Positions 1,072-41,572 of a stretch of 64,000 nt of DNA are shown here, in pieces. How positions within the stretch are numbered: the first letter of the stretch is position 1; the number at the start of each line of letters is the position of its first letter. The translations under genes and the position numbers were made by a program. This DNA comes from a virus, in IMG/VR virus record IMGVR_UViG_3300031578_000014; one strand, 5' to 3'. The notes below the pieces were generated by a model. That model worked only from the letters and a program-made list of their open reading frames with translations. It was not told where the DNA came from and made no database searches.

Positions 1072-1943
1072 AGCACGGTAGTCTGTTCGCTGGCATTGGA
1101 GGATTCGACCTCGGTTTTGAGCGAAACGGGATCGAAACGGTTTGGACGGTAGAGAAGGACAAGAACTGCAATCAGGTACTGGCTACGCACTGGCCGAATG
1201 TGAGACGCCATACAGATGTCAAGGAAGTCGGAAGACACAACCTCAGTCCAGTTGACATTATCTCTGGAGGATTCCCCTGCCAAGACGTATCAGTGGCCGG
1301 ACGCCGTGAGGGATTGGCTGGAGACCGGAGCGGGCTTTGGTTCGAGTTTGCACGCATTGTTGAGGAGATGGCGCCTCAGTGGGTCGTGGTCGAAAACGTC
1401 CCCGGCTTGCTTTCGTCTCAAGCAGGCCGAGACTTCCTGGTTGTCCTCCGAGCGCTGGAAGAACTCGGGTATTGTGGAGTCTGGCGCGTGCTTGACTCTC
1501 AATACTTCGGAGTACCCCAGCGACGCCGTAGAGTGTTCATTGTTGGAAGTCTTGGAAACGCAAGTAGCGTCGAAGTACTATTTGATGCCGACGGAAAACT
1601 TCTGGAGACGGTGGAGGGAGGGTTGGTTTCCAATACTCTTATCGGAAGAGGGACGGTTGATGCCTCTGGAGGAGCCGGCATTAGAAACTTAGTAGTAGCA
1701 ACGCTACGCACGTCTGGTGGCCCGGACAGCCAATATAGAAATGAATACATAGGCGATCGCCGGAATGGTGGCCTACGACTGAGAAAGCAAACGCCGATAG
1801 AATGGGAACGCTTGCAGGGATTCCCTGACGGCTGGACTGAGGGATTGAGTGACAGTGCACGGTACAGATGTTTGGGCAACGCGGTGACGGTAAACGTCGC
1901 CGAGTGGATCGGAAGAAGGCTAGTCAATGCTAATCTGCGCTGA
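1068..1943 (+). CDS. DNA (cytosine-5)-methyltransferase
   Basis: C5-MTase motifs FAGIGG (I), GFPCQDVS (IV), ENVPGLL (VI), QRRRRVFIVG (VIII), GNAVTV (X). Confidence 0.95.
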   Translation: MKHGSLFAGIGGFDLGFERNGIETVWTVEKDKNCNQVLATHWPNVRRHTDVKEVGRHNLSPVDIISGGFPCQDVSVAGRREGLAGDRSGLWFEFARIVEEMAPQWVVVENVPGLLSSQAGRDFLVVLRALEELGYCGVWRVLDSQYFGVPQRRRRVFIVGSLGNASSVEVLFDADGKLLETVEGGLVSNTLIGRGTVDASGGAGIRNLVVATLRTSGGPDSQYRNEYIGDRRNGGLRLRKQTPIEWERLQGFPDGWTEGLSDSARYRCLGNAVTVNVAEWIGRRLVNANLR

Positions 1944-3753
1944 CTCTAGGGCTGCGCTGGCAGAGATAGAAGAGGGGAGCGTGCAGTGCTGCATTACGTC
2001 GCCTCCGTATTGGGGGCTGCGAAGGTACGGCGATGCAGCGGAGATGGTCTTTGGCGGGGATCCTCAATGCGACCACGTTTTCAGCGGAGAGGTCGTTAGC
2101 GACATAAGGGAGGACGCAGCCCACGGCAAGACTAGGACCACGGATCGCTTCTATGGTGATGAGTCGAGGCGGTTTGACGGCAATCATCAGAAGCATGTCT
2201 CTACTCAGTTCTGCTCCCTCTGCGGCTGCTGGCGTGGTCAGTTCGGATTGGAGCCCACGCCTGAGATGTACGTGGAGCACACGCTGGAGTTTTTGCGGGC
2301 AATCTGGCGGGTGCTGAGGGATGACGGGGTTCTTTTTCTTAACCTGGGGGATTCCTATGCGGGCGCAGGCGATAGACGCGGGGGCAAGGGTGATGAGCAC
2401 GGCCAAGGAAAGAAATGGGCGACCTCCGCAGAGAGTATCGGCCTCAAGCCCAAAGACCTCTGCGGAATCCCCTGGCGCGTAGTCCTCGCGGCACAGGCGG
2501 ACGGGTGGTATTGGCGGCAAGTAGTTCCCTGGCTGAAGAGAAATCCCATGCCCGAGAGCACCGACGATAGACCCACAACCGCCCATGAATACTTCTTCAT
2601 GCTGACCAAGAGCGGCAAGCCTACCTACTGGACTCACAGAGACCGGGATGGTGTGCGGAAGAGACCAAAGGCAGACTACCGCTGGCAGAATCAGTTGACC
2701 GGAGAAGAAGTCTCGGAAGCCCCTGATGACTGGAAGCAGGTAGTCAAGTGCCCCGACTGTCAAGACGGTGAGATCATCCATGAGCAGTGGGGCGTGTCGT
2801 GGGCAGTGGAATGTGAGCGGTGCAAGGGCAAGGGAACTGTTCAACTCTGGAAGCGCGTCAACCTCTGGCGGGGGCATGACTACTACTGGGATGCGGATGC
2901 GATAAGGATGCCGGGCACAAGCGGACCATCGGACATCCGCAAGATGGTCGAGAAGAAAGACAGGATCGGCGGCAAGCACAAAACCTTAGACGATCCTCTG
3001 TCGAAAGCCAGCGCGAGCACTAACATAGGGCGCAAGCGGGCGGTAGGGAATCCCTCTGGCCGCAACCGCCGCACAACCGACTGGTTCTACGAGTCCATCC
3101 GCTACATCCTAGAGGGCGGCGAGCAAATGTTAGTCAGCCCAGAAGGGGATCCCCTGGCCCTGTGCGTGAACACGAGACCATACAAGGGAAGCCATTATGC
3201 GACGTTTCCGCCGGGGCTTATTCTGCCGATGATCCTAGCAGGAACCTCTCAGAAGGTCTGCGCTGAGTGCGGGGCGGGGTGGGAGAGGGTGACGGAACGG
3301 GAAACAAAAGAACCTAACTATCGCAAGGGAAACAGGCCGGAGACGGAGCACGCATATTGGGGCGAGTCGAATACACGCACTTTGGCAATGGTCCAAGATG
3401 TTCATACCCTCGGCTTCCGCCCCACCTGCTCCTGCGGCGATATGGTTGAGTGCGAACGGTGCCACGGCACAGGGATAGACCCAGAGGATGAGCCGGAGAT
3501 GGCTTGTCGCTATTGCCTCGACGCAGGCTACCAGCCAGAGACGAAGCCTCCAAAGAAGGCTATCATCCTTGACCCCTTTTGTGGTAGGGGCACGGTTCTC
3601 AAAGAGGCAAGAGCGCACGGCCGGGATTGGATAGGTATAGACGTCGATCCTCAGTCTATCAAGCTGGCGGAGGAATGGTTGAATCTAGGGGACGTCACCT
3701 ATGAGATTGACGAAGAGCACTGGATACAGCCGAGGCTAGGTTTACACGCGTAA
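1927..3753 (+). CDS. DNA methyltransferase, beta-class (SPPY; N4-cytosine or N6-adenine) with DnaJ-type zinc-finger insertions
   Basis: CCITSPPYWGL catalytic motif precedes AdoMet motif ILDPFCGRGTV; inserted CPDCQDGE..CERCKGKG and CERCHGTG..CRYCLDAG (CxxCxGxG-like pairs). Confidence 0.85.
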   Translation: MLICADSRAALAEIEEGSVQCCITSPPYWGLRRYGDAAEMVFGGDPQCDHVFSGEVVSDIREDAAHGKTRTTDRFYGDESRRFDGNHQKHVSTQFCSLCGCWRGQFGLEPTPEMYVEHTLEFLRAIWRVLRDDGVLFLNLGDSYAGAGDRRGGKGDEHGQGKKWATSAESIGLKPKDLCGIPWRVVLAAQADGWYWRQVVPWLKRNPMPESTDDRPTTAHEYFFMLTKSGKPTYWTHRDRDGVRKRPKADYRWQNQLTGEEVSEAPDDWKQVVKCPDCQDGEIIHEQWGVSWAVECERCKGKGTVQLWKRVNLWRGHDYYWDADAIRMPGTSGPSDIRKMVEKKDRIGGKHKTLDDPLSKASASTNIGRKRAVGNPSGRNRRTTDWFYESIRYILEGGEQMLVSPEGDPLALCVNTRPYKGSHYATFPPGLILPMILAGTSQKVCAECGAGWERVTERETKEPNYRKGNRPETEHAYWGESNTRTLAMVQDVHTLGFRPTCSCGDMVECERCHGTGIDPEDEPEMACRYCLDAGYQPETKPPKKAIILDPFCGRGTVLKEARAHGRDWIGIDVDPQSIKLAEEWLNLGDVTYEIDEEHWIQPRLGLHA

Positions 3754-3774
3754 AGATGAAGAGGGATACATAGT

Positions 3775-4536
3775 ATGAGTGAGGGCTGCGGGCAGAAGAT
3801 AGGGCCTTTTGATTGCTGCACTATCGTCACGGGCGAAGCTAGTGAGTTTCTAGTCGAATTGCCGGATGAGATAGCAGACTTTCTGCTCTTAGACCCGCCA
3901 TTCGATGTTCAGGGTTGGACAAGTAGTCATCATGGCTATCAGTTTGCGGCAGGCGCCAATTGGTCGTCGTGGGCACGTCAATGGGTCAGAGAATCCTACC
4001 GCATAGCTAAGGATGGGGCCGCGGTATTCGCGGTGGGCAACTATCAGGGATTCCATTACTTGGCATACGAGTTGGCTAGGGCGGGCTTCTCGCATCATAG
4101 CGATTATCAGGTCGCATATAAGGGCAGCCGCAAGCGCCCGACATTCAACAAGTTTCACGTCGTAACGGAATCTTGGTTCTATGGGACAAGGGGCGACTCA
4201 AACAGGTTCAAACAGCAGCAAGCGACGATAGTTCCCCTGACAGGAAACAATACGCATCTTTCATATTGGCTTGATCCGGACGGGACGGTACGGCGCTGGG
4301 AGAAATCCGAACAGCTGCTATCGTACTTTATCGATCTGACCACTGTGCCTGGCCAGCTAGTCATAGACCCATTTGTCGGATCGGGCACTAGCATCCTAGC
4401 GGCTTGGCAGGGGGGATGTCATTTCCTGGCGTGTGACATCAATCCCGAGCAAGTGGGGCGCGCCAGGGAGAGGGTGAGGAATACGCAACCGCCGCTATTC
4501 GTGATGCGGCCCGAACAACAAACGATGGAATTGTGA
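3775..4536 (+). CDS. DNA methyltransferase (DPPF; N6-adenine/N4-cytosine type), paralog of 21232..21894
   Basis: LLLDPPFDV catalytic motif and VIDPFVGSGTS AdoMet motif; N- and C-termini nearly identical to 21232..21894. Confidence 0.8.
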   Translation: MSEGCGQKIGPFDCCTIVTGEASEFLVELPDEIADFLLLDPPFDVQGWTSSHHGYQFAAGANWSSWARQWVRESYRIAKDGAAVFAVGNYQGFHYLAYELARAGFSHHSDYQVAYKGSRKRPTFNKFHVVTESWFYGTRGDSNRFKQQQATIVPLTGNNTHLSYWLDPDGTVRRWEKSEQLLSYFIDLTTVPGQLVIDPFVGSGTSILAAWQGGCHFLACDINPEQVGRARERVRNTQPPLFVMRPEQQTMEL

Positions 4537-5920: not shown

Positions 5921-7993
5921 ATGATACCACTTCACCTTGAAATGAGTAACTTTATGTGTTACGCGGGCGCATCCCTTTCCTTCGACGCCATCCACCTCGC
6001 TTGCCTCACCGGTCAGAATGGTCATGGAAAGTCGGCCATTCTGGATGCCATGACTTGGGCGCTGTGGGGCAAGGCCCGCACTCAGAGGGACGATGACCTG
6101 ATGCGCCTGGGCGAGACGGAGATGTGGGTACAGTTCGATTTCGCCCTGGGCCCCAACCGGTACAGGGTGCTGCGCCAACGGCACAAGGTAGGAAGGGGAA
6201 CCTCCACCCTGCAATTTCAGATCAGGGAGGGAGCCAACTACCGAGCGCTCACCGGTGACACTATGAGGGACACCCAGGACCTGATCATTAAAACGCTGCG
6301 CATGGAGTATGAGACATTCATCAACTCCGCCTTTCTCGTACAGGGCAGGGCAGACGAATTCACCACGAAGGCACCGGCGGAGAGGAAGAAGGTTCTGGCT
6401 GACATCCTGGATCTATCTCTCTACGACACGCTAGAGGAGCGCGCTAAGGAACGCAGCCGGGAAGCCAATCAGAACTTGCAGCTAATCGAGGCCGCTATAG
6501 CGCAGATGGAACAAGAACTAGCTCTGCGCCCTGAGCATGAGAGGGAGTTGGAAACCGCAGAGGCGGACGCGAAGAGCCTAACGGAAGAGTTGAAAGCGGC
6601 TCAGGAGAAGTTGGCGGAACTGCGGGAGAAGGGCGCGGAGCTGGAGCAGAAACGCGCGCAACTAGAGGGTCTGGGCAAGGAACTGAGCGCCCGGACTAAT
6701 GAACTGGCCGTATTTGAGAAGAGGATCGCGGCCGTAGGAGAGACGGATGGGCAAGAGCAAGTGCAGATGGAAGAGATTCGCCGGCAACTGGAAGCGCTGG
6801 CGGAACTCGATCCGGAACGTGCGAACCTACAGGTTCAGATAGAAGGGCTATCTAACGAGCAAACCGCACTGAACACGGCCAATGCCCAACTGAAACGGGA
6901 GATGGACAAACTCAAATCGGAGATCGGCGTCTTGACCGGGGCGGAGGCGAAATGCCCTACCTGTCGCACGGCATTGACCGAAGAGCACCGAGACGAAGTG
7001 CTTGCAGAAATGGAAGCGGAAGGCAAAGAGAAGGCAGACCTGTATCGGGAGAACGCTGCCCGCCTGAAGGACGCGGGGACGGAATGCGGCAAAGCGCGTG
7101 ACGCCCTGGGAGAACTAGAGGCCAAACTCCGGGCGGAGAAAGCACTAAGGGAAAGGGAAGTCGCACTGACTCAGGCACTAGCCGAGGCCGCCAGTCAAAA
7201 GGAACGACTGGCGGAGTGGGAGGAGGGCGCCGGGAAATTGAGGGAGGCTCTGGAAGAGGGGCAGGAAAAGCGCGTCACCCTGACGGTAGAAGTGGAGGCG
7301 CTGGAGCGCATCGCCCGGGACGTGAACGAAGAGCGCAGAAAGGCGAATGATCTGGACATTCTGGCATCCCGGGCGGCACAGCAGGTCGGAGCCGCGAAGC
7401 AGCGACTGGATCATTGCGACTACCTAGAGAAGCAGAAGAAAGAGCGTCAGGCGGAGCGCGATCAAGAGGGCGCCCGCTGGACGCTCTACGAGGAATTGAA
7501 AGTAGCCTTCGGCAAGCGGGGCATCCAGGCCATGATCATCGAGGCTGCCATTCCTGAGATCGAGGAAGAGGCCAACAAGCTCCTCAGCAGGATGACCGAT
7601 GGGATGCACGTGCAGCTAAAGAGTCAGCGGGAGACGCAGAAGGGCGACATCAGGGAGACGCTGGACATCGAGGTGGCCGACTCTCTGGGCCCTAGGGACT
7701 ACGGCCTGTTCTCGGGAGGGGAGGCGTTCCGAATCAACTTTGCGATCAGGATCGCCATCTCGAAGTTGCTGGCGCGCCGGGCTGGAGCGCAGCTGCGGAC
7801 GCTGATCATAGACGAAGGGTTCGGCACTCAGGACGCTAGCGGTAGGGAGCGGCTGGTGGAGGCTATCGCCTCCGTGGCTGATGACTTCTCTATTGTCCTG
7901 GTAGTGACCCATGTGGATGAATTGAAGGACGCCTTCCCTGTGAGGATTGACGTATTCAAGACCCCGCAGGGTTCGCAGATAGAGGTGAGCTAG
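5921..7993 (+). CDS. sbcC: SbcC/Rad50-like SMC-type ATPase
   Basis: Walker A LTGQNGHGKSAILDA, long coiled coil with central CPTC zinc hook, signature LFSGGE, Walker B LIIDEGFGTQD. Confidence 0.9.
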   Translation: MIPLHLEMSNFMCYAGASLSFDAIHLACLTGQNGHGKSAILDAMTWALWGKARTQRDDDLMRLGETEMWVQFDFALGPNRYRVLRQRHKVGRGTSTLQFQIREGANYRALTGDTMRDTQDLIIKTLRMEYETFINSAFLVQGRADEFTTKAPAERKKVLADILDLSLYDTLEERAKERSREANQNLQLIEAAIAQMEQELALRPEHERELETAEADAKSLTEELKAAQEKLAELREKGAELEQKRAQLEGLGKELSARTNELAVFEKRIAAVGETDGQEQVQMEEIRRQLEALAELDPERANLQVQIEGLSNEQTALNTANAQLKREMDKLKSEIGVLTGAEAKCPTCRTALTEEHRDEVLAEMEAEGKEKADLYRENAARLKDAGTECGKARDALGELEAKLRAEKALREREVALTQALAEAASQKERLAEWEEGAGKLREALEEGQEKRVTLTVEVEALERIARDVNEERRKANDLDILASRAAQQVGAAKQRLDHCDYLEKQKKERQAERDQEGARWTLYEELKVAFGKRGIQAMIIEAAIPEIEEEANKLLSRMTDGMHVQLKSQRETQKGDIRETLDIEVADSLGPRDYGLFSGGEAFRINFAIRIAISKLLARRAGAQLRTLIIDEGFGTQDASGRERLVEAIASVADDFSIVLVVTHVDELKDAFPVRIDVFKTPQGSQIEVS

Positions 7994-8005
7994 GGAGGAT
8001 GGGGG

Positions 8006-8314
8006 ATGGTAAGTGAGGAAGAGATGTGCGAGATCATGAAGGGCGTGCGATGTATTGGGCCTAATAACGCGGGCGTGAAAGAGGCCGCCCACGCTATCGC
8101 CGAAGCGATGAAGGAGGGCGTGGTGTGGGAGGGCCCTGCAAAGATCGGCAAACATGGAGGCGTAGACCTAATCAGTCCCGTCTCTGGCGAAACGTATGGT
8201 GCCTTCTCCCCCTGGCCTCCCGGTAGGCTGGAGGAGACGCCAATCGGCCAGCGCCTCCAGCTGACCGTGACGAAGGTACAAGCCCCGCAGGGATCACAGA
8301 TAGAGGTAGCATAG
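8006..8314 (+). CDS. hypothetical protein inserted between sbcC and sbcD
   Basis: Track ORF with GGGAGGATGGGGG RBS; last 9 aa (PQGSQIEVA) repeat the SbcC C-terminus. Confidence 0.5.
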   Translation: MVSEEEMCEIMKGVRCIGPNNAGVKEAAHAIAEAMKEGVVWEGPAKIGKHGGVDLISPVSGETYGAFSPWPPGRLEETPIGQRLQLTVTKVQAPQGSQIEVA

Positions 8315-8324
8315 GAGAAAGCGA

Positions 8325-8771
8325 ATGGTTGAGCGTACTGCATACAAGACGACAACAGTACCCGTGAGCAGGAGTCAAGAAGCGATTCGCAACCTCTTGG
8401 TTAAGTATGACGTGATAGGTTGCCAGTTCACAGAGAACTTTGAGACTGGCGAGATCGTTCTACGGTTCGTCAAAAGGGTCAATGAGATACCGAGAACTGT
8501 CCGCATAGTGCTACCAACCGAAGACAACGAGAAGCAGGCATACCGGGCGCTCTACTACTGGATGAAGAGCCAACTTGAGGCGGTTGACTTTGGATTGCTG
8601 TCATTTGAGCATGTCTTTCTGGCGCACTTTGAATGGATGCTAGAGAGCGGTCAGACAGCTACTGTTGCAGACATAATTCTCCCGAGGTTATCGGCACAGG
8701 GATCAGGATGTTTGTTAGAGGCGCCGCTAGAAGACGACGATGTGCCTAATGGTGAGTTTAGGGAGGTCTAG
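8325..8771 (+). CDS. hypothetical protein
   Basis: Track ORF with AGGAGAAAG RBS. Confidence 0.6.
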   Translation: MVERTAYKTTTVPVSRSQEAIRNLLVKYDVIGCQFTENFETGEIVLRFVKRVNEIPRTVRIVLPTEDNEKQAYRALYYWMKSQLEAVDFGLLSFEHVFLAHFEWMLESGQTATVADIILPRLSAQGSGCLLEAPLEDDDVPNGEFREV

Positions 8772-8788
8772 GACGAGGGGAGCGAAAA

Positions 8789-9985
8789 ATGAGAATCCTA
8801 CACTTTGCCGACCTACAACTGGGCGTAGAGACCTACGGAAGACCTAACGGGAAAACGGGACTGAATACTCGGGTCGAGGACTTTCTGCGGGTACTGGACA
8901 CTGTGATCGACCACGCCCTGGGTTGCGGGGTTGACCTGGTTCTGTTCTGTGGGGACGCCTTCGAGTACAAGACCCCCACGATGACCGTCCAGAGAGAGTT
9001 CGCATCTAGGGTGAAACGGCTCTCCGACGGGGGAGTGCCTACGATTCTAGTAGTGGGCAACCACGACCTCCCCGCGGCTATGGGCAAGGCTCATACCGTG
9101 GAGATCTTCCGGACCCTAGACGTGCCGGGGGTGATCATAGCCGACAAACCCGGAACGCACATCGTAGAGACGAAGTCGGGACCGGCGCAGGTGGTGACTA
9201 TCCCCTGGCCGTTGACCAGTCACCTGCTGACCCGGGAGGACGTGAAGGGGATGAATCCCGAGGAGATCAATGAACTGATCGCGGACGTGATAGGGAAGTG
9301 CATCAAGGAAGAGGCAGCCAAGCTGAATCCTGATCACGTTTCCATCCTGGCGGCACATCTAGCCGTGTTCGGCGGGTCCTACGGGTCACAACGAAGCGTA
9401 ATGCTGGGCAGCGAAGTCGTACTACCGCTGGACTCCGTATCGCTACCTCAGTTCGACTACGTCGCTCTCGGGCACCTCCACCGATACCAGGTGTTGAAGG
9501 ACAGCCCGCCGGTGATCTATTCAGGGAGCCTGGAGCGGGTAGACTTTGGAGAGGAGACGGAAGAGAAAGGCTTCATAGTCGTGGACATCGACTCCAGTAC
9601 CCAGATTCAGTTCGTGCCCCTGAACGCCCGAAGGTTTCTGACCATCGATGTCTCAGTAGAGGGGGCAGACCCTACAGCGCAGGTGCTGGAGGAGATCGGC
9701 AAGCACAACCTGGAAGAGACGGTCATTCGGCTGATCATTCGGGGCGACGAAGAGACGGCGCTCGGGCTCCGAGAAGGGGAGATTCAGCAAGCATTAGCGG
9801 GGGCGCACTACGTAGCCCCTATCATCAAGGATACACGAAGAACTACCCGCCTGCGGTTGGGCGACAGACCCTACGAGGAGATGACGCCCCTAGAGCTCTT
9901 AGAGACCTATCTGCAGTCGATAGGTACGGTGCCGGAGCGGATCGAGGTATTGGCAAGGGCAGCGGAAGAGTTGATGGCGGCATGA
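8789..9985 (+). CDS. sbcD: SbcD/Mre11-like nuclease (calcineurin-like phosphoesterase)
   Basis: ILHFADLQLG, CGDAFE, VVGNHD, LAAHL, GHLHR phosphoesterase motifs. Confidence 0.9.
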   Translation: MRILHFADLQLGVETYGRPNGKTGLNTRVEDFLRVLDTVIDHALGCGVDLVLFCGDAFEYKTPTMTVQREFASRVKRLSDGGVPTILVVGNHDLPAAMGKAHTVEIFRTLDVPGVIIADKPGTHIVETKSGPAQVVTIPWPLTSHLLTREDVKGMNPEEINELIADVIGKCIKEEAAKLNPDHVSILAAHLAVFGGSYGSQRSVMLGSEVVLPLDSVSLPQFDYVALGHLHRYQVLKDSPPVIYSGSLERVDFGEETEEKGFIVVDIDSSTQIQFVPLNARRFLTIDVSVEGADPTAQVLEEIGKHNLEETVIRLIIRGDEETALGLREGEIQQALAGAHYVAPIIKDTRRTTRLRLGDRPYEEMTPLELLETYLQSIGTVPERIEVLARAAEELMAA

Positions 9986-10676: not shown

Positions 10677-10928
10677 ATGGAAAGAACACTGAGCTACAAG
10701 GAAATGAGAGTTCTGGCAACGGAACCGCAACCCGAGGGCGTGATCATCGCAGACGCGGTAGACGAACTGATGGAAGGGTACGAACGGGACGAGGCAACCC
10801 TTCTGGAGGAAAGGAAGGCAATGGCTGCCGAGATCGTCAGCGAGAAGATAGAAGTCTGCAAGGCGGTCCTCGCGGACATTGAGGACCGCTACGGGTATGT
10901 GCCATTGAGGAGGGAGCGATGCCTATAG
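10677..10928 (+). CDS. hypothetical protein
   Basis: Track ORF, AGGAGGGAGCG RBS. Confidence 0.6.
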   Translation: MERTLSYKEMRVLATEPQPEGVIIADAVDELMEGYERDEATLLEERKAMAAEIVSEKIEVCKAVLADIEDRYGYVPLRRERCL

Positions 10929-11905
10929 AGGGGATGGAAGAGGTGGAACAGCTTCAACGGCTGGGCCACATCAGGAGGGGATACCAGACGCAGGTCACTG
11001 GCCAGGACGGTAAACCGAAAACAAAGCCAGTGGCGACGTCATACTTCATCGTGCCCCCCGAGGTTGAAGAGCACCTGAAGGCCGAGGGCTGGATCAAGGA
11101 CGGCGAAAAGCCGACCGTGCTACCTATCCATTTTCTGCTGGAGTTGGACAAAGCATTGCCCCATTTTCTCATGCAATTCGCCGGAAGTGGCAAGCTCCGC
11201 TGCTCGGGGGATGGTGCCGCGGTGTGGTTCAGGAAGTGGATGGAGAAAGAGGGCGGGAAGTGGAATGTCCAGACGCTAATCTTCGACCGTGTGGCGCGGT
11301 GGGACGCGATCACGGACCGTATGACCGAGGTCTGGAAGCGAGAGTATGGCACCGCGGAGCGGTATGGCGGGGAGGCGGGCAACACGTTTGTATGCCTCAA
11401 AGAGGAATGCCCGCAGTTCAAAAAGCGATCCTGCAAACCGACCGGATTCCTCAAGTTCGGAATCGAGGGACTGGAGCGCCAGGGCTACTATCAGATGGTC
11501 GTGCATCAATCGGCCCTGCGCCCCCTCTACTCGCAGCTCAGGTGGGCGAGGGATCTCATTGAGCAGTATTTGGGAAGGCCGACGATCCTCCACGCGTCCT
11601 ATGTGATGACCATGCGCGGACCTGAGAAGATGAACATCGGCGGCAGGCCAACGGATGTATGGACGCCCTGGGTGGAACTGGAGCCGACGTGGCTGAAGAA
11701 GGCCAAGGCGGGCCGGGTGAAACTACCCTGCGCGCCGCAGATCAGAATCACGGACATCTACAACGGGGACGGGATCCCCGGGATTCAGATGGAAGACGCA
11801 TTGGACATGCCGCCGGAAGTGATGGAAGACCTGAACTACGAACCTGAGGAAGAAGATGAGATCGCTGTATCGCCTGAGGAGGTTCCTAGCCCTGCGGGCG
11901 CCTAA
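10919..11905 (+). CDS. hypothetical protein (early region, function unassigned)
   Basis: Track ORF, GAGGAGGGAGCG RBS; acidic C-terminal tail; no motif I can name. Confidence 0.6.
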   Translation: MPIEGMEEVEQLQRLGHIRRGYQTQVTGQDGKPKTKPVATSYFIVPPEVEEHLKAEGWIKDGEKPTVLPIHFLLELDKALPHFLMQFAGSGKLRCSGDGAAVWFRKWMEKEGGKWNVQTLIFDRVARWDAITDRMTEVWKREYGTAERYGGEAGNTFVCLKEECPQFKKRSCKPTGFLKFGIEGLERQGYYQMVVHQSALRPLYSQLRWARDLIEQYLGRPTILHASYVMTMRGPEKMNIGGRPTDVWTPWVELEPTWLKKAKAGRVKLPCAPQIRITDIYNGDGIPGIQMEDALDMPPEVMEDLNYEPEEEDEIAVSPEEVPSPAGA

Positions 11906-24724: not shown

Positions 24725-25260
24725 CCTGCATAGTAGGGCTAACAGACAAAGGCAAGGTCTACATCGGAGGGGACTCCGCTTCGGGTAATGGATCCATGAC
24801 ACAGGTAAGCACGGTGCCCAAGCTCTTCCGGAAGGATCCGTTCGTGATCGGCTATACGTCGTCTTGGAGGATGGGTCAGATTCTACAGCACCACCTCCGC
24901 GCCGATGACCTCAAGGAAAGCGACTCGGCACACGAGTTCATGGTATGCGTGTTTATCGAGAAGGTGCGCCAGCTATTCAAGACCTTTGGCTATGCCAGAC
25001 GGGAGAACAACGAGGAGACGGGCGGGACATTCCTAGTGGGCTACTGCGGCCACCTGTACTTTATAGGCAGCGACTATCAGGTCAATGAGACCCTAGACGG
25101 CATGGACGCCTGTGGATGCGGTGCTGAGGTAGCACTGGGGGCACTCTACGCAACCAAGGGAACCCAGCTGAACCCCTTCCAGCGGCTCGACATCGCTCTT
25201 GAGGCAGCTGCGCACTTTAGCAGTGACGTTCGGCCGCCGTTCCGCGTCGAAGTTATATGA
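24721..25260 (+). CDS. proteasome-beta/HslV-like Ntn threonine peptidase
   Basis: M-TCIVGL start; with Thr2 as residue 1, Asp17 (GGDS) and Lys33 (VPKLF) fall at canonical positions; GCGAEVALGAL glycine motif. Confidence 0.7.
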   Translation: MTCIVGLTDKGKVYIGGDSASGNGSMTQVSTVPKLFRKDPFVIGYTSSWRMGQILQHHLRADDLKESDSAHEFMVCVFIEKVRQLFKTFGYARRENNEETGGTFLVGYCGHLYFIGSDYQVNETLDGMDACGCGAEVALGALYATKGTQLNPFQRLDIALEAAAHFSSDVRPPFRVEVI

Positions 25261-25270
25261 CAGGAGTCAA

Positions 25271-26242
25271 ATGAGAATCGCCTTCACTGAGCAAACGGTA
25301 ACCAAGACCTTCGGGAGCACTCGTCGGATAGTCGAACTTTCCAACGCCCTGAAAGTCTTAGGGCATGATGTGACGGTCTACACGAAGAACGGGCAGCCGC
25401 CCAAGTGGATCCCGCTCTTTACGCCCGTAAAGCTATGGTCGGCGATTAGGGGAACTTACGACCTGGCTCTGTTCAACAACTCCAAGCCGGACGAACTACG
25501 CTTAGTGAGGAAGACAGACGCGAAGGTCCGCGCCTTCTACGTCCTGGGGTGGGGAGAGACCAGGCTGGACGACATCGAGCAGCACATTAAGGGAGGCAGC
25601 CCGGACCCAGGGATAAGGGTGATCAGAAGCGTCTTCGACGATCCGGAGTTCTTGGTGCTGGCTTGCTCGACGTGGATAGGGCAGCACCTCCGAGACCGAT
25701 ACAGAAACGATGCCGAAACGCTGTTAGGGGGCATCAACCGGCAGCACTTCCGCCCATACCCCAAGGCCAAGGGGTTAAGGGTCTACTACTCGGGGGACCC
25801 GCGAAAGCGCAAAGGCACCGACACTACCAGGAAGGCGATTAGCCAGATGATTCACCGGATGAATCACACGGCCATTGCCCGCACCTACTGGGGAGAGGGT
25901 TTGAGTCAGGTGCAGATGGGGCAATGGTATTCGGAGGCTACGATCTTCGCCGACGGGCAACTATGGGCGGGATGGAACAACCCCGTCCTCGAGGCGATGG
26001 CCTGCAAGACCCCGGTAGTCTGTACGGACATCGGAGGGGTAAAGGATTTCGCCTTTGATGGGGAAACGGCACTGCTGGTGCCACCTAAAGACGTGGACGC
26101 TATGACGGAGGCGTTGATTCGTTTGGTCAAGGATCAGGCATTGAGAGATCGGCTGGCGCAGAATGCTTACAGTCACGTTAAGCAGTTTGCATGGGAGAAG
26201 ACGGCGAGAAGGTTAGTTCAGTTAGTGGAGGAGCGACTGTGA
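25271..26242 (+). CDS. glycosyltransferase, GT-B fold (GT1/GT4-like)
   Basis: EAMACKTPVVCTDIGGVKDFAFDGETALLVPPKD C-terminal sugar-donor motif. Confidence 0.8.
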   Translation: MRIAFTEQTVTKTFGSTRRIVELSNALKVLGHDVTVYTKNGQPPKWIPLFTPVKLWSAIRGTYDLALFNNSKPDELRLVRKTDAKVRAFYVLGWGETRLDDIEQHIKGGSPDPGIRVIRSVFDDPEFLVLACSTWIGQHLRDRYRNDAETLLGGINRQHFRPYPKAKGLRVYYSGDPRKRKGTDTTRKAISQMIHRMNHTAIARTYWGEGLSQVQMGQWYSEATIFADGQLWAGWNNPVLEAMACKTPVVCTDIGGVKDFAFDGETALLVPPKDVDAMTEALIRLVKDQALRDRLAQNAYSHVKQFAWEKTARRLVQLVEERL

Positions 26243-35687: not shown

Positions 35688-35716
35688 TTGCACGTTCTCA
35701 GAAAATGTGGTATAAT
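35688..35716 (+). promoter_or_regulatory. near-consensus sigma70 promoter with extended -10
   Basis: TTGCAC(35688-93)-N17-TGgTATAAT(35708-16). Confidence 0.75.
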
Positions 35717-35722
35717 ACTAAG

Positions 35723-36569
35723 TAGACGTTGCTCCTCTGTTCGCGAAAGTCGGCTTTGCATGCCGTGCGCTTGACAGCCTAGCGACAGAGGCGCTACTTT
35801 TACTAAAGTTCAGAAATGGTGGAAGACCATGTGCGACAGAATAGAAGATTGTAGACTACGCCAAATCATTCTCTATGCCCATGAACATTACGGGGACGAA
35901 TGAATCCCTTGGCAGGTAGCCTTGATTAGCTGCCAGAAGGCGACAGAACAGGACTTGGAATGGGCCAAGAAACAGGCTGTAGAATTGGGCTTAGAAGATT
36001 TAGCTGGTGTGTGTTTAGAGAAATCGTAGGCAGCGGGGCGCTGCCTAGCTCCCCCGGCACATAGTATGGCCGGGCCGACAGCCCCGAGGGGCTTGTCTCT
36101 GGCTTCGCTGGCTGTGCCGCAAACAGCCCGCTGGTGGAGGGTGACGGGAGTAATCCTGCCCACCCCTGGCTTTTGCCCCTGAGCCTATCAGGGGCCTCTG
36201 GTCCGGGGAACCTGTCGCTATCGTTCTATCCGCCCACCGGCTGCGGATTGGGAAGCTGCCGACAAACAGCCGGAAGGCTATCGACGGCGTGACGGGCCTG
36301 GACTATTCCCACTGTCCCTTACCACATGATATAGCGCCGGGAGGCGGCAAGTACCCCGGCATGAGAAAGTAAGGGCACCGGCGGACCGCCCGACAAGGTG
36401 CCCAACGAGCCGATGAGCCAGGGAGCGATCCCCGGCTCTTTCTGCATACAGAACGTATACGATTGACTACCAAACGTATACGCTGAGTAGTTTAACACTG
36501 AATAGTTTACCCATGTAAAGCGTGAGCCATTGCGCCGTTCGGGAGTCGCTTCCCGGGCGGCGCTTTTTT
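35723..36569 (+). ncRNA. candidate long structured non-coding transcript (unclassified)
   Basis: Bounded by promoter 35688-716 and terminator 36532-69; no + strand ORF of 60 aa or more; many GC helices incl. a GGAA tetraloop hairpin. Confidence 0.4.
36532..36569 (+). terminator. intrinsic terminator
   Basis: GCGCCGTTCGGGA-gtcgct-TCCCGGGCGGCGC (13 bp incl. 2 G:U) followed by TTTTTT. Confidence 0.8.
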
Positions 36570-36598
36570 GTTGCCCAACAAATGGCGGGAGGGGTGGG

Positions 36599-36718
36599 AT
36601 GGCCGAGATTCTTATGAACGTGGGCGTGCAGGGGATGATCCTCGGCTGGGCCATAGCGTTGATCACATTCGCCATGGCCGGTTTCTGCATGCTGATACTG
36701 GCGAAGTTCGCGAGGTAG
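36599..36718 (+). CDS. 39-aa membrane peptide
   Basis: ATG behind GGGAGGGGTGGG; MAEILMNVGVQGMILGWAIALITFAMAGFCMLILAKFAR. Confidence 0.5.
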   Translation: MAEILMNVGVQGMILGWAIALITFAMAGFCMLILAKFAR

Positions 36719-36720
36719 CT

Positions 36721-36813
36721 ATGCCCTATACGCCAGAGACCGTACCTGACTACGTACCCGATGACAAAGCCGATCAGTGGGCGAAGGTCTGGAATAGCGC
36801 CTACGACACCTGA
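36721..36813 (+). CDS. ChaB-like N-terminal segment ending at an in-frame TGA
   Basis: MPYTPETVPDYVPDDKADQWAKVWNSAYDT resembles the ChaB N-terminus (MPY..LP..V..P..A....FNSAWD); in frame with 36892..38271. Confidence 0.5.
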   Translation: MPYTPETVPDYVPDDKADQWAKVWNSAYDT

Positions 36814-36891
36814 ATTGAGGAAGGCGGCAGTCAGGACGACTGCGAGGCTTCCGCTTTCGCGCAGGCCAGCGGCGCGATCAAGGAGAACGCT

Positions 36892-38271
36892 ATGAATGCT
36901 TTGGAGAGGTTGCGGGAAAGAATAAGCGCCGCCTTTGCGGAGGCGCTAGAGCCCTCGATCAAGGAGTCAAACGAGGAAGCAAGGGCGATCTCGGGCTGCG
37001 ACATGATAGCGCAGGTATATGCCCAGCTATGGGATTCGACCGATGAGCTGCTGAGGAACGCGTGGCTTCTGGATTTCTTCCTTGACGATGGCGTGCTCTA
37101 CATGGTCATCGCGAGTGAGGGCAAGCTATACCGCGCGAAGCTTGACGTCGACTCAGCGACAGATACGGTGATCTTGGGTGAGTGGCAACAGATCAAGGTA
37201 GACCATGTGCCCATCGAAACGAGGCTTACGGTAGAGCGCCAGGCAGACGGCAGGTGCCGGTTCGTGGCGATCGCCAACACGGCGATTCTGAACCGCGTCG
37301 GCGAGATCGACAGTATGGCCTTGTTCGACAACTTCATCCAGCGTGCCGAGGATAGCGGAAAGTACCCCTACGTCACCTTCTACCACATCAGCAATGAGAA
37401 GCTCCTCCCTACGTTCCGCATGGGTCAGTGTGACTACCTGGCTCGAGATGAGGTGGCCTACATCGTCACCGGCTTGCTAGACGAATCGACGCCTCTCGGT
37501 GCGGATATGGCGCGTGCCCTAGAGGAGAACGCCGAGATTTGGGGCACGTCTATCGGATTCAACCCCACGGCCCCGCCTGAGCTGGCGGAGATCGGCGGGG
37601 TAAGGATTCCCGTATATCGCGAGGGGGAGCATAGCGAGCTGTCGCTCATTCTGAAGGAAGATGCGGCGGCTCTCTTCACGGCAGTTATTAGAGAGGAGGT
37701 TAGCATGGACAGCAGAATCGCCAAGGCGCTAGAAGCGCTTGGACTGAGCGAGGAGCGGATCGCGGAACTCGGTACTTTGGTCGATGACGTCAAGCACCGT
37801 GTCAAGGATGAGGATATGGTGACGCGAGAAATCGAAGAGGCACCCGCGGAGACACCAGAAGTAGTGCTCGTAGAAGAGTTGGTAGAAGAGCCTGTGGAAG
37901 AGCCCGCAGAAGTGGTACTCGATGAGGAAGCACTGCCCGCGCTCGCCGAAGGACTCCTGAGTTCCGAACCCTTCCAGGGGATTCTCGTGCCCATCGTAGA
38001 GAGCCTGGAGGCGCTTGGCAAGAGGCTCGAAGAGGCGGTGGCTACACTGACCGCAACCCAGACGGAGGCGCTGGAGCCGATCCGTACCAGGCTCGATCAG
38101 TTGGAGCGGACCGACGACGAGAAGAAGGACGAGTGGATGAAGGACTTGCCCGCCAAACGGCAGCTCACTGTGAAATACCGTGCGCCGGGTAGGGAGCAGG
38201 GTGAACCGGCCCCTAAGACTTATGCGGAAACGGCTGAGGAAACCGTAGCCGCGATCAAAGGAGGCGCATAA
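36892..38271 (+). CDS. prohead protease / scaffold fusion (HK97 S78-like), tentative
   Basis: Position before the capsid gene; YVTFYHIS...VTGLLDES...WGTSIGFNPT protease-like core; long acidic coiled C-terminal half. Confidence 0.55.
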   Translation: MNALERLRERISAAFAEALEPSIKESNEEARAISGCDMIAQVYAQLWDSTDELLRNAWLLDFFLDDGVLYMVIASEGKLYRAKLDVDSATDTVILGEWQQIKVDHVPIETRLTVERQADGRCRFVAIANTAILNRVGEIDSMALFDNFIQRAEDSGKYPYVTFYHISNEKLLPTFRMGQCDYLARDEVAYIVTGLLDESTPLGADMARALEENAEIWGTSIGFNPTAPPELAEIGGVRIPVYREGEHSELSLILKEDAAALFTAVIREEVSMDSRIAKALEALGLSEERIAELGTLVDDVKHRVKDEDMVTREIEEAPAETPEVVLVEELVEEPVEEPAEVVLDEEALPALAEGLLSSEPFQGILVPIVESLEALGKRLEEAVATLTATQTEALEPIRTRLDQLERTDDEKKDEWMKDLPAKRQLTVKYRAPGREQGEPAPKTYAETAEETVAAIKGGA

Positions 38272-39656
38272 TGAGTGAACTTGAATCAGTATTGGCCCAC
38301 CTGGCAGACACCAGCGAGGCCAACGCTAGTGCGGTCCGGCAGTTGCTCAAGACCAACGATCAACTGGTCCGCCGCCTCACGATAGGGGACGACGCGACTA
38401 TCTTCGGATGTTGCGGGTTGTTCGACCTCTGTAGCAACCAGGATCTGATGTCGCTCTCCCTGGAGGGCGCCAACAAGTTCCTCGACTGGCTGGGGTGGAT
38501 CCTCACCGAAGTCTGCATCGAGAGACGGTCCTTCATCAACTTCGTGAGGCCGGAGCAGTATGCAGGCGCGTGCACCGCCGGGTATCTGGCGGATCCGTGC
38601 GCCGACCCGAACTCCTACGAGTTCGGTACCTGTGACTTCATCATCCAGGACTACGGGCGCTTGCGGAGAGAGGGCCACGTTCAGGACGTGACCTATGACT
38701 TCATGAAATACTGCGAACGCCAGCCGATGTACCGTCTGGATGGGTCTCTGATAACCAACCAGACCGAGTACGAGATGCGCTTCGCCACTGAGGTCATTCT
38801 GCAGGACCTGAAGCGATATACCGTCACCGGAGCGGCGGCCCCTGGCCTGTTTGACGGCCTGGAGTCTTTGGTGACCAACGGCTATGTCGATCCCAACGGC
38901 AAGCCCTGTTCCTCGATGGACAGTATCGTCATCGACTGGAATCAGAACACGATGGCTGGCGGAGCGGGCATCACCTGGAACGGTGGTGCGGTAGGTGCCG
39001 GGTTCAACTTTGTTGATGTGCTGATGGCCGTCTACAGGCACATCAAGCAAAACATCTCGTGGGCGCCTTCGCTGGCGGCGCGTCAGATGCAGGTCGGCGA
39101 GATGATCATCCTCTTGCCCGGCTTCCTCCGGCAGTGCCTGTTGGATTCGTTCACGTGCTGGTCTGTCTGCCCCGGTGCTCAGTATCAAGAGGTAGCGATA
39201 CAGAGCTACGAGGCCAGGCAGTTCCGCCTCTCCCTGAACGGCGGCATGTTTGGGGATGGGGCAATCAGCATCGACGGGTTTACGATCCCTCTCATTCAAT
39301 ACGATTGGGAGTTGACCAAGGGTCCGACCCGCGGGGACATCTACCTGCTCACCGGCGGCATCGGCGGGGTGAAGACTCTGCATGGTGAGATGCTGGATAT
39401 GAGCAAGATCCCCTCCAAGCATGACGGGTTTGCCTATACCGATGGCGGAAGGCTCCTGACGTGGGAGGAGCAGGACCATACCTGCGTAAAGCAGATTGTA
39501 GAGATGAGGCCTCGAATCGTCGCGTGGGCGCCGTGGACGTTGGCACGGTTCCACGATGTCAGGTGCGCGGTTCCTGGTGGACCTAAGAGCCCGGATCCTT
39601 GTGAGGAGAGTTACCACCCCGAGGAGTGCTTCTGCGTGGCTCAGTGCCCGGAATAG
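38271..39656 (+). CDS. major capsid protein (by position)
   Basis: 461-aa ORF directly after protease/scaffold, TAATG overlap; followed by a GC stem-loop. Confidence 0.55.
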   Translation: MSELESVLAHLADTSEANASAVRQLLKTNDQLVRRLTIGDDATIFGCCGLFDLCSNQDLMSLSLEGANKFLDWLGWILTEVCIERRSFINFVRPEQYAGACTAGYLADPCADPNSYEFGTCDFIIQDYGRLRREGHVQDVTYDFMKYCERQPMYRLDGSLITNQTEYEMRFATEVILQDLKRYTVTGAAAPGLFDGLESLVTNGYVDPNGKPCSSMDSIVIDWNQNTMAGGAGITWNGGAVGAGFNFVDVLMAVYRHIKQNISWAPSLAARQMQVGEMIILLPGFLRQCLLDSFTCWSVCPGAQYQEVAIQSYEARQFRLSLNGGMFGDGAISIDGFTIPLIQYDWELTKGPTRGDIYLLTGGIGGVKTLHGEMLDMSKIPSKHDGFAYTDGGRLLTWEEQDHTCVKQIVEMRPRIVAWAPWTLARFHDVRCAVPGGPKSPDPCEESYHPEECFCVAQCPE

Positions 39657-39703: not shown

Positions 39704-41572
39704 GTGCAGGAACTGACGGCCATAGTACCGTTCTGGAACGGACACGAGACGATCGAGCGGTTGCTGCGTAGTCTACCAGTCGACCTTCCGGTGATCATTG
39801 TGGACGATCACTCGGATAAGGCTCTCGATCTGGACGTGGAGATCATCCGCCCTCTGGAGAAGGGATACTTCTCGGGGGCGGTCAACGCTGGCATGCGGGC
39901 CTGCGACACTGATGTTCTCATTCTGAATCAGGATGTGTGGCTTGAGGACGGCTGGCTCGATCATCTGAACGGACTGCGGGAGAAGCATCAGATCGTCGGC
40001 GACGGGGTGATGAGTCACCCCGTATGGCCTCAGGGCTACGTGCAAGGAACGTTCATGTACGTAGCCCGCGCTGTGATTGAACGGGTAGGGTTCCTGAATG
40101 AACGGGACTACCCGCTATGGGGTTCGACGTGCGAATACCAGCTAAGGGCGTGCAGGAAGGGGTTCAGCGCCTATCCGACTGAGGAGTTCAATCAGTGGAT
40201 GAAGCATGAACCCAGGCCGGAGGGCAGCCCATTCGGACCAGCGATCACGGAAGCGATCAAGCGGGAGCCGAACAAGAAGAACCTGTTCATCCGCACGCCG
40301 CCGGCGATCTCCGTAGTGGTGCCTTGCTACAACTATGGGCGATACCTCACGGATTGCATCAATTCTCTGATAGGCGGTGATACATGCCTCGGGCTGATGG
40401 ACGGCCAGACCTTCCAGTCCTTCGAGGTCATTATCGTCGACGACGCCAGTACGGATGAAACGGCAGAGATCGGCCGGGCGTTCGCGGATCCTTGGAAGGG
40501 CATCCGATACATCAGGCACAAGAGGAACCTCGGGACGCCGTTCGCCCTGAACACCGGCGTAAAGGCGGCTCGGGGTCAGTACATAACTATCCTCTCAGCG
40601 GACGACATGCTGGAGCCGTGGCACCTTGACAGCCTATACCGGGAGTGCGAGGCCAACCCCCAGAGGGTGACCTATGGCGACCTGAGGCAGCTCAAGAGCG
40701 GCCAGAGGGACAAGGCGCTCAAGCTCCCTCAGTACAACTTCGAGCAGGTGTTGAAAAAGAACCCGATGTCGGCGGGGATCATGTATCCGAAGAAGGCCTG
40801 GAGAGAGGCCGGCGGGTACTCCGAGATCATGGTAGAGGGCCGCGAGGACTGGGCTTTCAATATCGCCCTCGGGATACAGGGATGGTGCGGGCTCCATGTG
40901 GGAGGCCCCCCTGGATACCTGATCCGGCGCGAGAAACAGAACAGAAGCCTGACCACGGCGACGGCGGACTACTACAGATTCTTCAGAAGGCAGCTGACGG
41001 CGCTGTTTCCGGCGGTATATGCAGGAGATCGACCTATGGGATGCTGTGGACCTAGAAAAGCCGCTGTGGTGGCGAAAAACCCCACAGCCCGGGTGCAAAG
41101 GGAGGTATACGACGTGGGAGTAAAGGGTATGGCGCTAGTCGTTTTTGAACTGGACATCGGTGCACCGAAGACGATCTATGGCCCGGTGACGGGTATAGCC
41201 TATCAGTTCGGTGGGCGCAGGAAAATAGGGAGGGTAGACAAGAGAGACCTCCGAACGGGAACGGCTAGGAACCCCGGCTTCTTAGAGATGTATCAAGGGA
41301 AGAAGAGGATCTTCAGGGAGACCAAGGACCCCGGCAAGGCGCCCCCGAGAAAGAAGGTAGAGCCTCCGGTCGAGGAGTTCCCGCTTCTCAGTACAGCGGA
41401 GATCCCGGACCCCAGCTCGATGAAGGTCAAGGAGATCAAGGAGTTCTCTGGAAGCCTGGATGATTGGAAGGCCCTCCGCGAGGCCGAAGAGAACGGCAAG
41501 AACAGGGGCACGGCGATCAAGTTCATAGATGCGGCGATAGCCGACGCTGAAGGACAGCCCGACTTGGAATGA
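39704..41572 (+). CDS. dual-domain family-2 glycosyltransferase
   Basis: Two GT-A modules: IVPFWNG..VIIVDDHSD..LNQD and SVVVPCYNYGRYL..IIVDDASTDET..LSADD; GTG start. Confidence 0.8.
   Translation: MQELTAIVPFWNGHETIERLLRSLPVDLPVIIVDDHSDKALDLDVEIIRPLEKGYFSGAVNAGMRACDTDVLILNQDVWLEDGWLDHLNGLREKHQIVGDGVMSHPVWPQGYVQGTFMYVARAVIERVGFLNERDYPLWGSTCEYQLRACRKGFSAYPTEEFNQWMKHEPRPEGSPFGPAITEAIKREPNKKNLFIRTPPAISVVVPCYNYGRYLTDCINSLIGGDTCLGLMDGQTFQSFEVIIVDDASTDETAEIGRAFADPWKGIRYIRHKRNLGTPFALNTGVKAARGQYITILSADDMLEPWHLDSLYRECEANPQRVTYGDLRQLKSGQRDKALKLPQYNFEQVLKKNPMSAGIMYPKKAWREAGGYSEIMVEGREDWAFNIALGIQGWCGLHVGGPPGYLIRREKQNRSLTTATADYYRFFRRQLTALFPAVYAGDRPMGCCGPRKAAVVAKNPTARVQREVYDVGVKGMALVVFELDIGAPKTIYGPVTGIAYQFGGRRKIGRVDKRDLRTGTARNPGFLEMYQGKKRIFRETKDPGKAPPRKKVEPPVEEFPLLSTAEIPDPSSMKVKEIKEFSGSLDDWKALREAEENGKNRGTAIKFIDAAIADAEGQPDLE

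Follow-up and report, generated by a model that had tools for sequence, protein, structure and literature searches.

An in-frame TGA within a ChaB-like module of a phage head-assembly gene is a candidate selenocysteine codon

The 64,000-nucleotide stretch of viral DNA analyzed here, IMG/VR virus record IMGVR_UViG_3300031578_000014 (the whole stretch is hereafter called the window), belongs to a tailed-phage genome with a large terminase, tail genes and an amidase, and all of its genes lie on the + strand. We focus on one locus of this phage, 36,721–38,271 (+), where an in-frame TGA (36,811–36,813, +) splits a small ChaB-like module fused to a prohead protease-scaffold-like protein, and we consider this TGA as a candidate codon for selenocysteine (Sec). 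An ATG at 36,721–36,723, located 5 nt downstream of a Shine-Dalgarno (SD)-like GAGG (36,712–36,715, +), begins a 30-codon open reading frame (ORF), MPYTPETVPDYVPDDKADQWAKVWNSAYDT, which the TGA ends. The following 26 codons (36,814–36,891, +), IEEGGSQDDCEASAFAQASGAIKENA, contain no in-frame ATG, GTG or TTG, and the frame continues unbroken to an ATG at 36,892, which is in frame with the first one (171 nt, or 57 codons, apart). This second ATG, 6 nt downstream of a strong SD, AAGGAG (36,880–36,885, +), is an internal in-frame start and opens the 459-aa protease-scaffold-like ORF (36,892–38,271, +). A hairpin (36,827–36,843, +) starts 13 nt after the TGA, with a 6-bp stem of GCAGTC (36,827–36,832) and GACTGC (36,838–36,843) and an apical loop AGGAC (36,833–36,837). 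The preliminary description of this DNA had given these starts, the stop, the intervening codons and the hairpin, and all were found to be exact.

Read through the TGA, the locus would form a single-frame gene of 516 aa (36,721–38,271, +) consisting of ChaB-like module (Sec31), linker, protease and scaffold, with the TGA as residue 31 and the 459-aa protein as the C-terminal 459 residues. Cys-containing equivalents of this product (P0002, P0008, L018, L030, L043 and L060) are each encoded as one continuous ORF. Every gene caller split the locus at the TGA; in the related contig L001 there is also a spurious 612-aa call (P0005, L001:6001-7839), a gene-calling artefact that begins at an ATG directly 3′ of the TGA. 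The two SD motifs of the window were read from the sequence. The counterpart of its GAGG in L001 is GAGGT, ahead of a GTG start, and at the place of its AAGGAG there are SD-like purine-rich motifs in L001 (GAGGAG) and L003 (AAGGAGG).

The first half of the module (36,721–36,810, +; MPY...WNSAYDT, 30 codons) comprises an N-terminal stretch and a long helix, and can be aligned to the corresponding half of P0002, of P0008 and of over 100 other family members. The second half, together with the linker, occupies the 26 codons after the TGA and carries an invariant Cys (TGC, 36,841–36,843). A 28-sequence family profile (A3) matched PDB 1SG7, the structure of Escherichia coli ChaB, at E=1.4e-5 over profile positions 2–65 and chain residues 22–88. 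In the homologue P0010, a domain annotated by Pfam as ChaB (PF06150) stands at the same N-terminal position on the same protease. Pfam ChaB was detected below threshold in four of ten modules (best E 0.005), and a half-profile retrieved many PF06150 proteins, only weakly (E about 0.001–10). Pfam gave no match for the 57-aa read-through peptide of the window or for the 30-aa peptide, and PHROGs gave none for the module, the 459-aa protein or the 461-aa protein encoded downstream. The AlphaFold2 (AF2) model of the family member P0017 is a helical hairpin with helices at residues 20–39 and 44–58 (predicted local distance difference test (pLDDT) 89); a Foldseek search of the ChaB-like model against the PDB had a best E of 1.1, and 1SG7 was not among the 50 matches listed. 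At the level of sequence profiles, the module is thus a ChaB relative. The resemblance to ChaB suggested in the preliminary description therefore holds for the family profile against 1SG7, while the window sequence alone lies below Pfam detection.

The module is widespread. An exhaustive profile search found 2214 representative proteins containing it at E ≤ 0.001; the best 150 of these 2214 are all full-length, and over half of these top matches are at least 400 aa long with the module at the N-terminus. Elsewhere its partners include Mu-like_Pro (Mu-like protease I), Peptidase_S77, Phage_scaffold, Phage_capsid_4 and a 2'-5' RNA ligase domain. The module also occurs as a stand-alone gene, flanked by the portal and capsid genes. 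We infer from the N-terminal fusions to head proteins and from the stand-alone site beside portal and capsid genes that the module is a passenger delivered into the procapsid. Passenger domains of several kinds cluster at the N-terminus of the protease-scaffold family: a Cys-rich zinc-ribbon-like insert in P0002, a ~150-aa domain ('WSGAASNY...CMLP') common to P0005, P0008 and P0013, and an unrelated ~80-aa domain in P0004.

The TGA is reproducible and old. The 175-nt stretch containing it is 100% identical in three independent assemblies (L118 from ENA, L119 from Logan and L120 from JGI), and the 459-aa product was found on 18 contigs from these three sources. Relatives were found by searching with the read-through product, and their contigs were then inspected at the homologous codon. 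TGA occupies this codon in four distinct lineages, namely the window, L001/L002 (L001:5998), L003 (L003:5908) and L004/L007 (L004:3389), whose protease cores are 57–64% identical to one another. The preliminary description had proposed aligning orthologous genes at this codon, and the alignment gave TGA in these three other lineages and TGC in L005. Two further searches added nothing to this set: a DNA pattern search of IMG/VR for more TGA forms returned four chance matches and zero homologues, and a search with a profile of half the module, aimed at truncated peptides that stop at the TGA, yielded zero new TGA lineages.

Both halves of the module evolve as protein-coding sequence. Between lineages, the 28 codons upstream of the TGA showed a proportion of synonymous differences (pS) of 0.53–0.90 and a nonsynonymous-to-synonymous ratio (dN/dS) of 0.07–0.24, and the 22 gapless codons downstream showed a pS of 0.35–0.72, a proportion of nonsynonymous differences (pN) of 0.10–0.25 and a dN/dS of 0.08–0.42; across both sides, pN ranged from 0.07 to 0.25. 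The near-saturated synonymous sites and low dN/dS indicate protein-level constraint on either side of the TGA. Frame continuity from the split module into the protease is preserved in all four TGA lineages, and three of them (the window, L003 and L004) have zero in-frame start codons between the TGA and the protease ATG, so that the conserved 26 codons are translatable there only through the TGA. Collectively, the TGA is conserved across lineages and both module halves are under coding constraint.

The column occupied by the TGA is Cys in relatives. The closest Cys-bearing relative, P0002/L005, reads ...WNSAYDT-C-MEAGGSPEDCEES... with TGC at this column. The codon is TGC or TGT in L005, L018, L030, L043 and L060, and the residue is also Cys in P0008 and L112; the Cys forms P0008, L018, L030, L043 and L060/L112 are continuous ORFs fused to the protease. 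In a neighbor-joining tree, the TGC lineage L005 is nested among the TGA lineages as the sister of L003 (79% identity), which indicates that TGA is ancestral to the clade and that L005 represents a later TGA-to-TGC (Sec-to-Cys) change. Among 167 retrieved family members, 102 have both this Cys and the one in the second half, 43 have neither and only ~5 have just one (P0090, F...C, and P0163, A...C, are examples). As members mostly have both or neither, the two Cys residues behave as a coupled pair, with a spacing of mostly 9 and sometimes 7 residues. The partner Cys is retained in all four TGA lineages. In the AF2 model of P0017, the first Cys residue lies where one helix ends and the second where the next begins, on either side of the inter-helix loop, which is where a covalent staple is predicted to lie.

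We then compared the hairpin downstream of the TGA with the bacterial selenocysteine insertion sequence (SECIS). The bacterial SECIS (bSECIS) consensus of the Zhang and Gladyshev model, as quoted in PMC13188914, has an apical loop of 3–9 nt in which position 1 or 2 is a G, mostly with G or U next to it, a stem of 4–16 bp, a UGA-to-loop distance of 16–37 nt and a minimum free energy (MFE) of −7.5 kcal/mol or lower. We used our own strict implementation of this consensus, which accepts uninterrupted stems only. The window and L001 passed (loop AGGAC, spacing 19 nt, 6 bp, −8.0 kcal/mol), as did L003 and L004, in which a GGA loop closed by a C-G pair (CGGAG) is spaced 20 nt from the UGA on a 7-bp stem of −7.8 kcal/mol. 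The close Cys form L005 also passed, with the same loop as L003 and L004 and the same values (20 nt, 7 bp, −7.8 kcal/mol); the distant Cys forms L018, L030, L043 and L060 have no such hairpin and failed. As background, 4% of all 1204 TGA triplets in the window passed the test. When the same peptides were recoded synonymously with the codon usage of the phage, the hairpin occurred at that position in only 2–5% of the draws per lineage, although every lineage retains it while synonymous sites elsewhere are saturated. This test, stronger than that for covariation, suggests selection on the RNA structure. The rare Ser and Thr codons AGT and ACT (13–14% usage) are kept in all five clade members, and 30 of the 30 base-pair cells across the five related sequences are paired. 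One stem pair varies, being G-C in the window, C-G in L001 and G-U in L003, L004 and L005. The 63 nt starting at the UGA had an RNAfold MFE of −24.2 kcal/mol (z = −1.0); this fold includes a possible extended lower stem of GGAAG (36,819–36,823) with CTTCC (36,848–36,852; whole element 36,819–36,852, +), which is specific to the window and is not conserved in L001, L003 or L004.

The phage uses the standard genetic code, TGA being its commonest terminator (38 of 74 ORFs). Genome-wide TGA reassignment was rejected on these counts, because no tRNA was found and because a scan of the window for other in-frame TGA junctions gave none that was convincing. The tRNA search covered the window and two flanking loci that together appear to span the ~73–75.8 kb genome. 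Two other in-frame TGAs with an open frame on both sides, at 10,880 (before a Gp3-like gene, 10,919–11,905, +) and at 960 (before a C5 methylase, 1,068–1,943, +), look like chance. Distant relatives of the phage occur in metagenome-assembled genomes of Chloroflexota, Anaerolineae and Ardenticatenia, and the Chloroflexota include some Sec users (PMC1794560 Table 2; PMC5389517).

Taken together, a TGA at an invariant paired Cys and a hairpin fitting the bSECIS consensus make Sec insertion likelier than generic read-through. On this comparative evidence, we consider it probable that the TGA at 36,811–36,813 is a Sec codon and the product a phage-encoded selenoprotein dependent on host SelB. Published criteria for new selenoprotein families (PMC1976440) ask for TGA in two or more distinct sequences, for homologues with Cys and for a hairpin resembling a SECIS, and by its sequence features the locus qualifies as a candidate new bacterial selenoprotein family. 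The preliminary description had suggested that the TGA splits a ChaB-like domain whose frame continues into the protease/scaffold ORF, which the comparative data support. It had further suggested programmed recoding that yields both a ~516-aa fusion and a 30-aa peptide; comparison supports the recoding and the fusion, and the 30-aa product, being half of one small domain, is likelier a by-product than a functional peptide.

In the mechanism that we propose, ribosomes would start at ATG 36,721, using the SD GAGG, and run to the UGA at 36,811. The hairpin, with its AGGAC loop 19 nt downstream, would act as a bacterial SECIS and recruit host SelB with Sec-tRNA(Sec). A fraction of the ribosomes would insert Sec and produce the 516-aa ChaB-like (U31-x9-C41)–protease–scaffold protein, in which U-x9-C replaces the C-x9-C of the family; the junction would read VWNSAYDT-U-IEEGGSQDDCEASAFAQASGAIK. 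The U31/C41 pair would probably form a selenylsulfide staple across the inter-helix loop. Other ribosomes would terminate and release the 30-aa half-domain. Because it has its own strong SD and ATG, the 459-aa protein is probably made independently, and the bulk of it would come from this internal start. The usual low efficiency of Sec decoding would keep the long form a minor isoform, and its protease-scaffold part could bring a few copies of the Sec module into the procapsid. No tRNA was found in the window and the two flanking loci, and no Sec gene among the large ORFs, so Sec decoding would depend wholly on the host. SelB dependence, Sec insertion, the Se–S bond, internal initiation and capsid targeting are all predictions made from the sequence.

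Several observations weigh against Sec at this position. Sec usually serves in catalytic redox sites and not in small structural domains, and both Cys residues are missing from about one family member in four, indicating that the residue is not essential for the fold. The phage has neither a tRNA(Sec) nor a recognizable Sec gene among its large ORFs, and insertion would need a host with selA, selB, selC and selD. The hairpin is short (6–7 bp) and barely passes the energy cut-off (−7.8 to −8.0 versus −7.5 kcal/mol). Covariation is seen at one base pair only and lacks statistical significance, since the observed value was reached in 109 of 500 shuffles of the five related sequences. Moreover, the hairpin is still present in the Cys form L005, and the distant Cys forms L018 and L043 use AGT too. 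No Rfam family was found at the gathering score over the whole window, and a search at E ≤ 10 over 35.6–37.0 kb gave chance-level matches only, none of them to a SECIS family. A match to a curated SECIS model is not a defining feature, as bacterial SECIS elements are heterogeneous (PMC12013277, PMC13188914).

Other explanations of the TGA have to be weighed on the same data. The alternative offered in the preliminary description was that the TGA is a sequencing error or arose recently by nonsense mutation; nothing beyond the stop codon itself speaks for either, for an assembly error or for a pseudogenized N-terminal domain, and all are refuted by the identical ENA, Logan and JGI assemblies (18 contigs) and by the same TGA in three further diverged lineages with synonymous saturation and dN/dS well below 1 on both sides, which leaves them next to no probability. 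A true stop would give a 30-aa peptide and a separate 459-aa protein, with the 26 codons as an untranslated leader conserved for RNA or regulatory reasons. The gene callers split the locus in just this way, and the strong SD ahead of ATG 36,892 fits. However, substitution in the 22 codons after the TGA is of the protein type (pN far below pS, as given above), these codons specify a conserved helix (C-E-x-S-A-F-A-Q-A-N-G), the second of a domain that hundreds of relatives encode in one ORF, and none of the four lineages breaks the frame into the protease, making a genuine stop very improbable.

Read-through without Sec is the remaining type of explanation, and the conserved TGA and the coding constraint on both halves fit any read-through mechanism. 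Under programmed leaky termination as in Qbeta A1, the UGA would occasionally be read by a standard near-cognate tRNA, in most cases tRNA-Trp, solely to set the long-to-short ratio (a few percent), the identity of the residue being irrelevant. The separate SD and ATG of the 459-aa form suggest that this ratio matters, and a non-Cys residue could be tolerated, given the quarter of the family without the Cys pair. However, the stop lies exactly at the invariant paired-Cys column, none of the four TGA lineages has lost the partner Cys, and in the family the loss of one Cys nearly always goes with the loss of the other. The TGA also falls inside one ~57-aa domain, at the end of a long helix and not at a domain boundary; the sole change away from TGA in the clade is to TGC (Cys); and the conserved hairpin with SECIS spacing, seen in so few synonymous draws, is left without explanation. 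To our knowledge, stimulation of UGA read-through by a hairpin downstream is not established in bacteria. We regard leaky termination as unlikely, and as the most serious rival of Sec insertion. A further possibility is that the UGA is decoded as Cys, by a host opal-suppressor tRNA or a SelB-delivered tRNA(Sec)-like tRNA-Cys, which would give an ordinary C-x9-C product. The comparative evidence for Cys is the same as that for Sec (the TGA/Cys column, the partner Cys and the hairpin), and sequence alone cannot separate the two. Sec-tRNA-like tRNA-Cys species that may act as opal suppressors were described in deltaproteobacteria by Mukai et al. (PMC5389517). However, such tRNA-Cys are reported from few lineages only, no tRNA was found in the window and the two flanking loci, and a general host opal suppressor would be costly where TGA is the commonest stop of the phage; we consider decoding as Cys improbable.

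The protein to which the module is fused weakly resembles, in its modelled fold, a prohead protease followed by a scaffold. The AF2 model of the 459-aa protein has a mean pLDDT of 64. Its best Foldseek match is the T4 gp21 prohead protease (probability 0.98, E 0.028, TM 0.53 on the target), and many herpesvirus assemblins and proteases were matched as well, none of them at E ≤ 0.001. Among 13 homologues, H165 and S220 are invariant, in the order His then Ser, and residues 345–418 of the model form long C-terminal, scaffold-like helices. The 459-aa protein had no sequence match in Pfam, PHROGs or the PDB, and a protease profile searched against the PDB returned coiled-coil noise only. The model thus weakly suggests a fold of the T4 gp21/herpesvirus-protease type followed by scaffold-like helices.

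Directly after this gene, with its ATG overlapping the TAA, lies a 461-aa ORF (38,271–39,656, +) that is conserved at 460–462 aa in L001, L003 and L004. Its product had no Pfam, PHROG or PDB sequence match, and position and synteny alone mark it as the presumed major capsid protein. Directly after this putative capsid gene lies the gene for a 622-aa protein that has two glycosyltransferase family 2 (GT2) matches. Glycosyltransferases lie in or beside the head-gene module of the phage and its relatives (39,704–41,572 (+) and 25,199–26,242 in the window; L001 and L003), together with methyltransferases and a sulfotransferase-like gene, which hints at modification of the virion or the cell surface.

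Directly upstream of the ChaB-like module, a 39-aa hydrophobic ORF, MAEILMNVGVQGMILGWAIALITFAMAGFCMLILAKFAR (36,598–36,717, +), appears as a conserved, called gene in L001, L002, L004 and L118, and it is likely a real small membrane protein. Farther upstream, ~900 nt (35,700–36,575) contain no convincing ORF and have two hairpin-plus-T-run elements, one at ~36,401–36,447 and the other a strong 14-bp terminator (36,532–36,563) followed by T6. Both elements are kept in L003, L004 and L005, and the second is also present in L001. A tRNA-Met gene lies between the two elements in L003 (L003:5647-5721); the window has no tRNA there.

The phage, of ~73–75.8 kb, is present in many samples, and blastn of 33.5–39.7 kb against GenBank phages gave no match. 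Further genes of the window (1,068–4,536 and 5,921–9,985) are those for three DNA methylases, one C5 and two N6/N4, and for an SbcC/Rad50-like ATPase accompanied by an Mre11-like phosphoesterase. Outside the window, a serine recombinase gene adjoins a helix-turn-helix (HTH) repressor-like gene (L114:11,907-13,349 and L115:13,355-13,708), which suggests that the phage is probably temperate.

Recoding with Sec has been reported from cells and from two poxviruses (PMC8310308), and no phage-encoded selenoprotein was described in the full-text literature searched, subscription journals lying largely outside it. We favor, by a modest balance of the evidence, the reading that this is the first natural bacteriophage-encoded selenoprotein and a new family with Sec at the first C-x9-C position, in which the virion interior depends on SelB and selenium supply and the U/C pair may form a selenylsulfide staple. 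The mechanism would then be the known bacterial Sec-UGA/SECIS recoding, and what would be new is the carrier, a phage morphogenesis gene, and the context, a ChaB-like domain with U-x9-C. If this holds, phages use host Sec decoding for structural genes, and their host range and virion composition are tied to the Sec trait and to selenium. ChaB-like modules would join the selenoproteins as a new family, whose U-x9-C motif is unusual and probably structural. A selenylsulfide, unlike a disulfide, could form and persist in the reducing cytoplasm and anoxic sediments where such phages assemble and live. Gene callers would systematically split such genes, and phage selenoproteins may thus be missed generally. 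The UGA and the candidate SECIS form a compact element of ~35 nt that is directly testable. The widespread fusion of the module to proteases, scaffolds and capsid proteins points to a common, uncharacterized capsid-internal passenger.

The locus can be compared with several known systems. Like bacterial selenoprotein genes, of which E. coli fdhF is the prototype, it has a UGA where homologues have Cys and an in-ORF stem-loop directly downstream. The loop of the fdhF SECIS is AGGUC; here it is AGGAC or CGGAG, at a spacing of 19–20 nt that lies within the bSECIS range of 16–37 nt, and one clade member shows a Sec-to-Cys change. Unlike bacterial selenoproteins, the candidate is phage-encoded, its ChaB-like passenger sits on a capsid-assembly protein and not on a redox enzyme, its hairpin is minimal at about −8 kcal/mol, and Sec is predicted from sequence alone. 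The poxvirus selenoproteins are the glutathione peroxidases of molluscum contagiosum virus and fowlpox virus (PMC8310308, PMC1802603). As in these, a viral gene would rely on the host Sec machinery throughout, and the fowlpox SECIS also lies within the coding region. The poxvirus enzymes are, however, captured cellular genes with a eukaryotic SECIS/SBP2 system, whereas here a phage morphogenesis gene carries a bacterial-type signal and has no cellular selenoprotein counterpart.

Among phages, the Qbeta A1 protein arises where a UGA that ends the complete coat domain is read as Trp by near-cognate decoding, giving a C-terminal extension and a minor virion protein. As proposed here, a UGA in a phage structural gene is occasionally decoded there to give a minor longer protein; unlike in Qbeta A1, the UGA here lies within a domain, at a paired-Cys position, and is followed by a SECIS-like hairpin. 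The nested protease/scaffold genes of tailed phages, such as lambda C/Nu3 and Mu I/Z, likewise encode a long and a short product in one frame via an internal SD and ATG, with a protease-like core followed by coiled-coil scaffold helices. Unlike in those pairs, the long product here would also need stop-codon recoding, and no Pfam or PHROG protease family was matched. In stop-codon-reassigned phages, TAG or TGA is a sense codon genome-wide and is read by phage suppressor tRNAs. The present locus resembles these in having an in-frame stop within a late or structural gene, and differs in that only one site is affected, TGA is still the commonest terminator and the phage sequence examined yielded no tRNA. 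Finally, the module shares with ChaB (PF06150) the signature MPY...LP..V...W..[FW]NSA[YW] ... AF..A...V. Unlike E. coli ChaB, it contains an extra loop with a Cys residue on each side (C-x9-C, sometimes x7) and is mostly fused to phage head-assembly proteins.

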